From assembly GCF_044324785.1 (NCBI RefSeq), contig NZ_CP172127.1: a stretch of 64,000 bases of DNA; one strand, 5' to 3'. The position numbers and the translations under genes were made by a program. Every line of letters begins with the position of its first letter. The stretch's first letter is position 1. The stretch is from Escherichia coli. Lineage in GTDB: Bacteria; Pseudomonadota; Gammaproteobacteria; Enterobacterales; Enterobacteriaceae. Positions 57,894-64,000 of this stretch are shown here, in pieces. The notes under the pieces were generated by a model. That model was not told the origin of the DNA and did no database searches. It saw nothing but the letters and a program-made list of their open reading frames with translations.

Positions 57894-59537
57894 ATGCGCC
57901 AGGTATTATCGTCTCTTTTGGTGATTGCTGGACTTGTGAGTGGTCAGGCAATCGCCGCGCCTGAATCCCCCCCGCATGCTGATATCCGCGACAGCGGTTT
58001 TGTCTATTGCGTTAGCGGGCAAGTCAACACCTTTAACCCATCCAAAGCGAGCAGTGGGTTAATTGTCGATACCCTTGCCGCCCAGTTTTATGATCGACTG
58101 CTGGATGTCGATCCCTATACCTATCGCCTGATGCCGGAACTTGCCGAAAGCTGGGAAGTTCTCGACAACGGCGCGACCTATCGCTTCCACCTGCGTCGCG
58201 ATGTTCCGTTTCAAAAAACCGACTGGTTTACTCCCACTCGTAAAATGAATGCCGACGATGTGGTGTTTACCTTCCAGCGAATTTTTGACCGCAACAACCC
58301 GTGGCATAACGTCAACGGCAGCAACTTCCCCTACTTCGACAGCCTGCAATTTGCCGATAACGTGAAAAGCGTCCGCAAACTGGATAATCATACGGTTGAG
58401 TTCCGACTCGCCCAGCCGGATGCTTCTTTTTTGTGGCACCTGGCGACCCATTATGCATCGGTCATGTCGGCAGAATATGCCGGGAAGTTAGAGAAAGAAG
58501 ATCGCCAGGAACAACTCGACCGTCAACCGGTTGGCACCGGTCCGTATCAGTTGTCGGAATACCGCGCCGGGCAATTTATTCGCTTACAACGTCATGATGA
58601 TTTCTGGCGTGGTAAGCCGTTGATGCCACAAGTGGTGGTGGATTTAGGCTCTGGCGGTACAGGACGATTGTCGAAACTCCTGACCGGGGAGTGCGACGTT
58701 CTGGCCTGGCCTGCTGCCAGTCAGCTATCCATTTTGCGTGACGACCCACGCTTGCGTTTAACGCTGCGTCCTGGGATGAACGTCGCCTATCTGGCATTTA
58801 ACACCGCCAAGCCGCCGCTAAATAATCCCGCTGTCCGCCATGCGCTGGCACTGGCGATCAATAACCAGCGTCTGATGCAATCCATCTATTATGGTACGGC
58901 TGAAACGGCAGCCTCTATTTTACCGCGCGCCTCGTGGGCCTATGACAACGAGGCTAAAATTACTGAATACAATCCGGCGAAATCGCGCGAACAGTTGAAG
59001 GCGTTGGGGCTGGAAAACTTAACGCTGAAACTGTGGGTGCCAACACGTTCGCAGGCGTGGAACCCCAGTCCACTGAAAACCGCCGAACTGATTCAGGCGG
59101 ATATGGCACAGGTTGGCGTAAAAGTGGTGATTGTGCCGGTAGAAGGTCGCTTTCAGGAGGCGCGGTTGATGGATATGAGCCATGATCTGACGTTATCCGG
59201 TTGGGCGACTGACAGTAACGACCCGGACAGTTTCTTCCGTCCGTTACTGAGCTGCGCAGCAATTCATTCGCAGACCAACCTCGCCCACTGGTGCGATCCG
59301 AAATTCGACAGCGTGTTGCGTAAGGCGCTCTCCTCGCAGCAGCTGGCGGCGCGTATTGAAGCCTATGACGAAGCGCAAAGTATTCTGGCGCAGGAATTAC
59401 CTATTCTGCCGCTGGCGTCGTCATTGCGTTTGCAGGCCTATCGGTACGATATCAAAGGTCTGGTACTTAGTCCGTTTGGTAACGCCTCCTTTGCTGGGGT
59501 GTATCGCGAGAAACAGGATGAGGTGAAAAAACCATGA
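57894..59537 (+). CDS. sapA: SapA periplasmic peptide-binding protein, 547 aa
   Basis: Signal peptide followed by an SBP family-5 domain, first gene of sapABCDF. Confidence 0.9.
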
Positions 59538-62369: not shown

Positions 62370-63176
62370 ATGATCGAAACGTTGCTTGAAGTGCGTAATT
62401 TAAGTAAAACGTTCCGCTACCGGACCGGCTGGTTTCGTCGTCAGACCGTAGAAGCGGTAAAACCCTTGAGCTTTACGCTACGTGAAGGCCAGACACTGGC
62501 GATCATTGGCGAGAATGGTTCTGGTAAATCCACGCTGGCAAAAATGCTGGCGGGAATGATAGAACCTACCAGCGGCGAGTTATTGATTGACGATCATCCG
62601 CTGCATTTTGGCGATTATTCCTTCCGCAGTCAGCGTATCCGCATGATTTTTCAGGATCCTTCGACCTCGTTGAATCCCCGTCAACGTATCTCGCAAATTC
62701 TGGATTTTCCACTGCGTCTGAACACCGATCTGGAACCTGAACAGCGTCGCAAACAGATTATTGAAACGATGCGTATGGTTGGGCTGCTACCGGATCACGT
62801 CAGTTACTATCCGCATATGTTGGCACCCGGGCAAAAACAGCGTCTGGGGCTGGCGCGCGCGCTGATATTGCGCCCAAAAGTCATTATTGCCGATGAAGCC
62901 CTCGCCTCACTGGATATGTCGATGCGTTCGCAGTTGATTAATCTGATGCTGGAGTTACAGGAAAAACAGGGCATTTCGTATATTTATGTTACCCAGCATA
63001 TCGGAATGATGAAGCACATTAGCGACCAGGTGCTGGTGATGCATCAGGGCGAGGTTGTCGAGCGAGGCAGCACCGCGGATGTGCTGGCATCGCCGCTGCA
63101 TGAACTCACCAAACGGCTTATTGCCGGTCATTTTGGCGAGGCATTGACGGCGGATGCGTGGCGTAAGGACCGTTAA
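62370..63176 (+). CDS. sapF: SapF ABC ATPase, 268 aa
   Basis: Walker A GENGSGKST. Confidence 0.9.
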   Translation: MIETLLEVRNLSKTFRYRTGWFRRQTVEAVKPLSFTLREGQTLAIIGENGSGKSTLAKMLAGMIEPTSGELLIDDHPLHFGDYSFRSQRIRMIFQDPSTSLNPRQRISQILDFPLRLNTDLEPEQRRKQIIETMRMVGLLPDHVSYYPHMLAPGQKQRLGLARALILRPKVIIADEALASLDMSMRSQLINLMLELQEKQGISYIYVTQHIGMMKHISDQVLVMHQGEVVERGSTADVLASPLHELTKRLIAGHFGEALTADAWRKDR

Positions 63177-63805
63177 CAGGTTTCCTGGCTAGTACAATAT
63201 TCTTCACCGATAGCATCAGGGTCGATAAAGGGATACTCATTTTGCATAATATCCTGTAAATATTGTGCAAAATTAACAGCAATGACCTGATAGCTATCGG
63301 GATCATGTAAATAACGAACAATTTGTCCAGATTTTCCTTTTGGAGATGGAGAAAAGTCGATATATAAACGTGAAGTGCCGCCATTATTAATGCAATGAGC
63401 AAAACAGAGCCAGCGATGAAACGGTACAGTTGGATCTATACGTTCATCAACATCGACTTCGTCCATTTGCCCATCGTAGATTTTCATGATGGATTCCTGA
63501 CCAAACCATGACTTTCTTTCCTCCAAAATCTGCTGGGCAGACTGGAGATAATAGGGATATTCTCCGCCTTCAACATCCGCCCCTAAAACGGGTAAAAATA
63601 CCTTTTTATCCTGATGTTGTTGAAAATAAGTTCCCTTGATCTGGCGAAGCAAACCGAGTAAATCCTCCGAAGAATCAGGATATTCATGGAGAAGTTCTGT
63701 TATATCGCTTTCTTGCGCTCCAGACAGTGTTGCAAATAATGCCCTGACATCCGTTGGCAAATGTGCGGCAAGCCCGGCCAAATATTCCTGATACATTGTC
63801 ATCAT
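63173..63805 (-). CDS. SMI1/KNR4 (SUKH-1) family protein, a putative orphan immunity protein, 210 aa
   Basis: The 210-aa ORF has a C-terminal ...WLCFAHCINNGGTSRLYIDFSP...GQIVRYLHDPDSYQVIAVNFAQYLQ block, which resembles the SMI1/KNR4 signature. The DNA is AT-rich. Its stop shares the TTAA tetranucleotide with the sapF stop. Confidence 0.6.
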   Translation of the reverse strand: MMTMYQEYLAGLAAHLPTDVRALFATLSGAQESDITELLHEYPDSSEDLLGLLRQIKGTYFQQHQDKKVFLPVLGADVEGGEYPYYLQSAQQILEERKSWFGQESIMKIYDGQMDEVDVDERIDPTVPFHRWLCFAHCINNGGTSRLYIDFSPSPKGKSGQIVRYLHDPDSYQVIAVNFAQYLQDIMQNEYPFIDPDAIGEEYCTSQETC

Positions 63806-64000
63806 AACGTCCTTTTTTAATCCATAATGAACAGCGTGTTTTGACTGTTTTTCTTAACAAAAGTTCCTGCTGTGCAACGCTCTGGCTCTTTAGTCCTTTC
63901 GTCGCTTATAATAGCTTTTTTCGGTCTTCCTCTTTCTCAAGAGAAAAGCTGCCTGATGTACAGGCACTGAAACGAGTATCAACAATAAGGATTAAAGCTA

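Follow-up and report, generated by a model that had tools for sequence, protein, structure and literature searches.

A rare SUKH-1 (SMI1/KNR4 family) gene cassette in the sapF-fabI slot of Escherichia coli

Not all SUKH proteins are immunity proteins: Syd binds SecY, and Knr4/Smi1 is a signalling hub for cell-wall stress. Bacterial SUKH proteins have been documented or predicted to act as immunity proteins for diverse toxins, and the fold is described as a set of conserved helices, a beta-hairpin and a four-stranded beta-meander that together form a split sheet (Zhang, Iyer & Aravind 2011, PMC3113570). Orphan SUKH immunity proteins of Bacteroidales protect against a T6SS WHH nuclease effector (PMC12247911). 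The interval between sapF and fabI in E. coli has been described in a survey of more than 20,000 assemblies that gives eefRABCD or ycjD as the sole alleles, the former in phylogroups B2, D, E, F and G and the latter in phylogroups A, B1 and C (Microb Genom 2026, PMC12817139). The term "SMI1" has zero occurrences in that paper, and a SUKH-1 allele is not mentioned there. Here we describe a locus at which a SUKH-1 gene occupies this interval.

The gene between sapF and fabI

Within the window, by which we mean the whole 64,000-nt stretch of E. coli DNA that was analysed, the sapF-fabI interval contains a 210-aa ORF that converges on sapF (Table 1). As the original prediction had read from the sequence, the two stop codons (TAA at 63174-63176 on the plus strand for sapF, and TAA at 63173-63175 on the minus strand for the SUKH-1 gene) lie within a common TTAA, and the resulting 4-nt overlap between the coding sequences leaves zero intergenic space and therefore none for a terminator. 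The same layout is annotated at loci L003-L005 and in strain N3 (NZ_CP031609.1), which carries the gene at the identical locus under the accession WP_200834211.1, "SMI1/KNR4 family protein". All 18 draft E. coli contigs with the gene that were read (17 with P0001 and one with P0002) have the order sapF-SUKH-fabI; carriers number roughly 20-30 assemblies. The Shine-Dalgarno-like AAGGA lies 4 nt 5' of the ATG at 63803-63805 and 7 nt 5' of the ATG at 63800-63802. We conclude that the ORF is a real gene, because it has full-length homologues in other phyla (E=1e-41 to 1e-51) and because two E. coli alleles are both in frame, with a dN/dS of 0.21. The family-level annotation given by NCBI is already correct.

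Table 1. Coordinates of the features at the sapF-fabI locus, in window positions.
Feature	Position	Strand	Basis and remarks
sapF	62370..63176	+	ORF list; named sapF in strain N3 and K-12; closes the sapABCDF operon; borders the cassette on the left
SUKH-1 (SMI1/KNR4 family) gene, 210 aa	63173..63805	-	ORF list; ATG start
TTAA, overlap of sapF and SUKH-1 gene	63173..63176	convergent	Direct reading
Low-GC cassette, 774 bp	63177..63950		Alignments against K-12 and O157, blastn, repeat scan
Divergent intergenic region, SUKH-1 gene/fabI	63806..63999		Alignments against K-12 and O157
AAGGA, Shine-Dalgarno-like	63810..63814	-	Direct reading; putative
Hairpin TGCCTG-ATGTA-CAGGCA	63950..63966		T-rich tail on the minus strand
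fabI start codon, first base (A)	64000	+	Strain N3 annotation (locus 7101 = window 64000), alignments; right flank of the cassette

Alleles of the slot and history of the cassette

K-12 has ycjD (DUF559, plus strand) at the same position, bearing out the earlier claim that the SUKH-1 gene stands in the place of ycjD. In O157:H7 and strain A33, the interval is occupied by a TetR regulator and an RND efflux operon, corresponding to eefRABCD as described in PMC12817139. Of 5,426 complete E. coli genomes, 3,346 had ycjD when counted at a query coverage of at least 80%, and 2,044 had the eefR region; the SUKH-1 gene was present in one (strain N3), and about 35 genomes had disrupted or other content between sapF and fabI. 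Based on these counts, we conclude that the slot has essentially two forms (ycjD or eefRABCD) plus a rare third one, and is not the hypervariable islet that had been proposed. The SUKH-1 cassette fills the slot that the ycjD and eefRABCD alleles occupy, which extends from the sapF stop codon to about 50 bp upstream of fabI. It has no detectable similarity to either allele, and it also swaps out the stretch from -125 to -50 relative to fabI that those two alleles have in common. Within that stretch, a TATAAT at 63907-63912 (plus strand) lines up with a TATAAT upstream of fabI in K-12 and O157, and the rest is unrelated to the K-12 and O157 alleles. We detected no remnants of ycjD or eef within the cassette; the only segment shared by blastn was 63951-63999, the last 49 nt before fabI.

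The ORF had been described as AT-rich, and its composition agrees: the GC content of the SUKH-1 gene is 41.2% (GC3 34.6%), compared with 51.3% (GC3 56.5%) in sapF and a window-wide value of 50.2%. The cassette is foreign in composition and was acquired horizontally. We rejected the idea that it is a mobile element: a repeat scan and the ORF list revealed no notable direct or inverted flanking repeats, no IS element and no integrase at its edges, and homologues were absent from 50,697 phage records and from enterobacterial plasmids. Among GTDB species representatives, there was no homologue of more than 50% identity except in Escherichia sp. MOD1-EC7003, which has a 62% identical paralogue at another locus.

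The history of the cassette is decoupled from that of its flanks. The sap flank of the window has a top identity of 99.0% to any complete genome. Relative to strain N3, a single mismatch falls in the 823 positions of the cassette, and 38 fall in the 3,643 of the sapB-sapF flank (p=0.006); relative to the second allele, L005, the cassette has 56 mismatches over 823 positions and the flank has 64 over 3,643 (p=7e-13). The L005 allele, which differs at 50 of 633 nt and retains an intact reading frame, encodes a protein with 89% amino-acid identity, and synonymous divergence is 0.23 in the SUKH-1 gene versus 0.08 in sapF and sapD. The dN/dS of 0.21 between the two E. coli alleles indicates purifying selection, and we rejected diversifying selection between them on that basis. 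The cassette appears to pass from one lineage to another through recombination within the conserved flanks, and its alleles presumably predate the divergence of the surrounding backbone.

The fabI gene, which is essential and targeted by triclosan, also bears on a further claim of the original prediction, namely that a hairpin near the end of the window marks the end of a minus-strand gene, either a cognate toxin or a further orphan, located past position 64000. The hairpin and its T-rich tail are present, and on the minus strand (63966-63950) they do resemble a terminator. However, position 64000 begins plus-strand fabI in strain N3 and in the carrier contigs that were read, and K-12 and O157:H7, despite their differing neighbour genes, both keep the hairpin ahead of fabI (GCCTGATTTTCAGGC). 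Moreover, the one terminator-like site observed equals the chance expectation (1.2 +/- 1.0 in shuffled sequence). Hence, we rejected the proposed gene, to which we assign a negligible probability. From the alignments, we read the GCCTG...CAGGC hairpin as a conserved part of the fabI leader that is found in all three alleles.

The predicted protein and its homologues

The 210-aa protein matched the Pfam model PF09346 (SMI1_KNR4) over residues 65-184 with an E-value of 2.6e-9 and a score of 38.2 bits, above the curated gathering cut-off of 25.4 bits, and PF09346 was present in all 120 homologues listed. There were zero matches to NCBIfam models. An AlphaFold2 model for which 56 homologues served as input was confident (pLDDT 94.5, pTM 0.91), with strands at residues 62-64 and 67-69, which pair, and at 132-138, 146-150, 161-166 and 171-176, followed by a helix at 179-188; the modelled protein is consistent with the published description of the SUKH fold (PMC3113570). 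The top solved structure in a Foldseek search with this model was the core of yeast Knr4 (E=4e-9, TM about 0.6); further matches were the SUKH domain of human FBXO3 (E=7e-5) and Bacteroides BF1740 (E=3e-3), and Syd (E=0.027) and B. subtilis YobK (TM 0.37) matched weakly. A sequence search of the PDB also returned Knr4 as the best match (E=1e-3). The Pfam score and the fold match to Knr4 uphold the earlier assignment of the protein to SUKH-1.

The structured core of S. cerevisiae Knr4/Smi1 (PDB 5j1b, 8aj2) is thus the closest solved structure by both sequence and fold, and it has in common with the 210-aa protein a C-terminal motif block, ...NNGG..(L/I).(I/V)D..P...G..(G/A)QI(V/I)...D.D...VIA.N(F/W)..(Y/F)L. 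However, the identity between the two proteins is merely 16-19%, Knr4 has long disordered N- and C-terminal arms that the 210-aa protein lacks, and the cell-wall signalling context of Knr4 has no bacterial equivalent. The HMM match and the fold tie the protein to the SUKH-1 family (PF09346; PMC3113570), here as a stand-alone single domain; compared with SUKH-1 proteins in general, it belongs to a longer subgroup (195-210 aa) that is unusually conserved and has an N-terminal helical extension. Judged by structural similarity of the model, the 210-aa protein is closer to eukaryotic Knr4/FBXO3 (TM 0.6) than to the short YobK-type SUKH protein (TM 0.37), and we place it in the Knr4-like longer subgroup, not in the YobK type. 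The protein is cytoplasmic and acidic (pI 4.4), with a single domain in addition to the extension, and the subfamily is very acidic throughout (median pI 4.3, net charge about -21). Members from Bacteroidota, Bacillota and Pseudomonadota share 45-49% identity and 28 invariant residues. The 210-aa protein keeps all 28, and it is not shortened in comparison with homologues from other phyla.

We kept 80 of 411 matched species-level loci for the neighbourhood comparison, in which neighbours were scanned in part and gene calling in high-GC loci was crude, so an effector-linked member of the subfamily may have been missed. No such member was found among about 90 loci inspected, and no toxin gene was seen upstream or downstream of the SUKH-1 gene or of its homologues at these loci. 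A same-strand gene of Rhs or CdiA size did not precede the SUKH gene at any of 83 homologous loci, and a same-strand toxin was not found upstream in those 83 loci, in three plasmid loci or in further contigs that were looked up. At the locus described here, where the neighbours are the convergent sapF and the divergent fabI, there are no adjoining toxin, Rhs, CdiA, PAAR, LXG or T6SS genes, nor do the window's large ORFs include an evident one. A cognate immunity gene is expected directly 3' of, and on the same strand as, a toxin gene whose product has a secretion-related N-terminal region and a variable C-terminal toxin domain, and the SUKH-1 gene has no such position. Nor does it lie in an array of immunity genes, which often has a recombinase or traces of mobile elements: the gene is single and is without repeats, an IS element or an integrase. 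Some of its homologues do lie in arrays.

Many SUKH homologues stand alone in a housekeeping neighbourhood. Where upstream neighbours were scanned, they are housekeeping genes, among them those for a polyprenyl synthetase, cytochrome bd II with bestrophin, an OEP/HlyD pair, a UvrA-like ATPase, a fucosidase, an aldehyde dehydrogenase, MscS, an MFS transporter and an ECF sigma factor. Synteny of the Stenotrophomonas homologue extends over at least 29 species-level genomes; a divergent dienelactone hydrolase gene is immediately upstream and a Mur-ligase-like gene is on the other side, in a neighbourhood that also includes alpha-amylase and polyprenyl synthetase genes. Large ORFs of 1,041-1,471 aa in these high-GC Stenotrophomonas loci were discarded as spurious; they have no Pfam match, and the true divergent neighbour is the dienelactone hydrolase gene. 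Synteny was also found in four Burkholderia genomes, with cytochrome bd II and bestrophin genes as neighbours, and on Bacillus megaplasmids the homologue is solitary. Tandem SUKH copies were present in 3 of 80 loci. Around P0055, a metagenomic homologue, small genes form same-strand arrays, and one array includes a GAD-like/T6SS_Tdi1_C immunity gene scoring above Pfam thresholds. The small genes in the arrays that contain P0106 and P0060 mostly have no Pfam match, the remainder being mainly DUF4303, DUF7832 and DUF7716, and a Pseudomonas locus (L013) has a second SUKH gene together with a DUF7716 gene. Four independent homologue contexts look like immunity islands.

Candidate functions of the SUKH-1 protein

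The best single hypothesis, which we hold tentatively and at somewhat less than even odds, is that the 210-aa protein is a stand-alone ("orphan") immunity protein. The 774-bp foreign cassette has displaced the usual sapF-fabI content, probably via homologous recombination in the conserved flanks, and it carries one intact gene for a strongly acidic, cytoplasmic single-domain SUKH-1 protein of the Smi1/Knr4 type. According to the hypothesis, this protein would bind and block a competitor's toxin domain delivered by T6SS, CDI or Rhs; the target would probably be a basic, nucleic-acid-targeting domain, and the strain would be protected without producing the toxin itself. Consistent with an immunity role, PF09346 scores above its cut-off, the model has the SUKH fold, and some homologues lie in contexts resembling immunity islands; in addition, the gene is foreign, rare and decoupled from its flanks, and has been kept functional (dN/dS 0.21). 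The acidity of the protein fits binding of basic nuclease toxins, although this trait is not specific to immunity proteins. The closest described parallel is provided by the Bacteroidales rAID orphan SUKH genes (PMC12247911), which likewise are SUKH genes without an effector. The likeness extends to the small-gene arrays around some homologues, one of which contains a T6SS immunity gene, and to the acidity of the protein, which fits an electrostatic binding interface. By contrast with rAID, the E. coli locus has a single gene and not an array, no recombinase or repeats, and one SUKH domain where rAID has two; no effector-linked homologue was present among the loci inspected, and selection is purifying, not diversifying. 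Against an immunity role more generally, there is no linked toxin, and homologues are syntenic among housekeeping genes or solitary on Bacillus megaplasmids. The cross-phylum identity of 45-49%, the 28 invariant residues and the purifying selection are also unlike what is seen for a rapidly diversifying immunity gene. In structure, the protein comes closest to Knr4, which is not an immunity protein, whereas the match to the YobK type, a predicted immunity group, is poor (TM 0.37).

The same observations bear on the other explanations. An unlikely but serious competitor is that the protein acts as an adaptor that binds other proteins in a cellular role unrelated to conflict, and that E. coli acquired it as an accessory gene. 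The position of Knr4 at the top of both the sequence and the structure matches among solved structures is consistent with such a role, as are the cross-phylum conservation with its many invariant residues, the solitary and syntenic placement among housekeeping genes in Stenotrophomonas and Burkholderia, the purifying selection, and the failure to find a linked toxin at any locus examined. However, the extreme rarity and patchiness of the gene in E. coli indicate that E. coli can do without it, some homologues are found in arrays that resemble immunity islands, and no partner is known; moreover, the invariant positions mostly belong to the block shared with Knr4 (NNGG, D, G-Q-I/V), and so need not mark a specific partner. 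We give a low probability to a more specific proposal, in which the Knr4-like SUKH-1 subgroup is a non-immunity counterpart of Knr4/Smi1 with a conserved cellular partner, and in which the cassette, because it provides a new fabI promoter region, could alter fabI expression. That the gene is a functionless passenger or decaying remnant, whose ORF is intact by chance, is very improbable: it is rare, AT-rich and an orphan without recognisable operon partners, as such a remnant might be, but its length is complete when set beside homologues from other phyla, the frame is intact in both of two alleles with 50 differences in 633 nt (dN/dS 0.21), all 28 invariant residues are retained, and an RBS-like AAGGA precedes the start codon.

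It is also improbable that the gene is a detached part of another conflict system, either a module of SWIM with DUF6493, DUF7824 and DUF7825 or the PADLOC phage-defence candidate PDC-M40. This explanation is suggested by the 62% paralogue (E. coli/Escherichia sp.), which is located 13 nt downstream of a SWIM gene within an insert of the form yegX-[DUF6493/7824/7825 x2 - SWIM - SUKH]-yegW, and by matches of the 210-aa protein to PADLOC PDC-M40A (E=9.4e-11) and of the SWIM protein to SWIM_XIII. However, K. aerogenes, Chryseobacterium and Bacteroides have the DUF6493 and SWIM module with no SUKH gene, indicating that the SWIM-SUKH link is not conserved, and we rejected a functional tie on these grounds. 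The module is present at just 1 of 80 species-level subfamily loci, and the phage records contain zero homologues. PDC-M40 is a putative system only, on which we found no literature; the match concerns its component A, and the immediate neighbours of the gene are sapF and fabI. Literature searches on DUF4132 with SWIM and on DUF6493 returned nothing, and a search on SUKH and SWIM returned nothing relevant.

The SUKH-1 gene is of an ordinary, already-annotated kind, and current understanding is unchanged by it. With this gene, the sapF-fabI slot, published as carrying ycjD or the EefABC efflux operon, gains a rare third allele, and the slot exchanges cassettes independently of its flanks. The locus also brings to notice a mostly solitary, well-conserved SUKH-1 subgroup. 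If the protein is an orphan immunity factor, the cassette would be a simple E. coli example of acquired defence against a competitor's toxin.

Relatives of the SUKH gene and their neighbours

A paralogue 62% identical to the SUKH protein is found in rare E. coli and in Escherichia sp. MOD1-EC7003, where its gene is the last in a low-GC insert flanked by yegX and yegW, together with genes for two DUF6493/DUF7824/DUF7825 proteins, of 855 and 887 aa, and a SWIM zinc-finger protein. On its own, this DUF6493+SWIM module is present in K. aerogenes, Chryseobacterium and Bacteroides (comparison loci L101, L103 and L104). The SWIM protein is 65–80% identical between these phyla, and this level of sequence identity implies that this uncharacterised module would have moved between phyla recently. 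A literature search for the DUF6493+SWIM module found nothing.

We also observed that DUF7716 proteins repeatedly adjoin members of the SUKH subfamily in unrelated contexts, in Pseudomonas sp. PDM28 on the one hand and in a metagenomic MAG on the other; the array of the same MAG contains two DUF4303 genes. Separately, a record titled Nocardiopsis yanglingensis A18 (JBJNRH010000002.1; locus L052) groups with Stenotrophomonas loci. It shares their synteny and their 332-aa polyprenyl-synthetase neighbour, suggesting contamination or mislabelling of the assembly.

Coordinates of the features discussed (L, comparison loci; all others, window positions)
Feature	Position	Further loci or remarks
sapA ORF	57894-59537	
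sapF/SUKH gene overlap	63173-63176	tail-to-tail
SUKH gene beyond the overlap	63177-63805	
Replaced segment upstream of fabI	63875-63950	fabI -125 to -50
TATAAT	63907-63912	
Leader hairpin	63950-63966	
sapA of E. coli N3	L001:996-2638	
IS1203-truncated eef operon, E. coli O157:H7 strain 9234	L015:1-1931	
yegX-yegW insert with SUKH paralogue	L006:1413-8624	L007, L008, L018
DUF7716 beside SUKH subfamily	L013:5443-5775; L112:7614-8234	L014, L113-L115

The sap operon and its overlap with the SUKH gene

E. coli N3 is the sole complete genome with the SUKH allele, and its sapA is annotated as frameshifted; the sapA ORF of the window is intact. The sapF and SUKH genes overlap tail-to-tail, and we found no terminator-like site on the plus strand 3' of sapF in the window. 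Based on this arrangement, sap operon transcripts would be expected to read through into the SUKH gene in antisense orientation, and those of the SUKH gene to extend into sapF, with mutual transcriptional interference between the two genes being possible.

The region upstream of fabI

In E. coli O157:H7 strain 9234, an IS1203 insertion truncates the eef operon beside fabI, and the periplasmic adaptor gene of the operon is annotated as partial. In the SUKH allele, unrelated sequence replaces an upstream segment of fabI that is common to the ycjD and eef alleles, with only a TATAAT and a leader hairpin being retained; hence, the promoter region of fabI, which is essential and the target of triclosan, differs in this allele.
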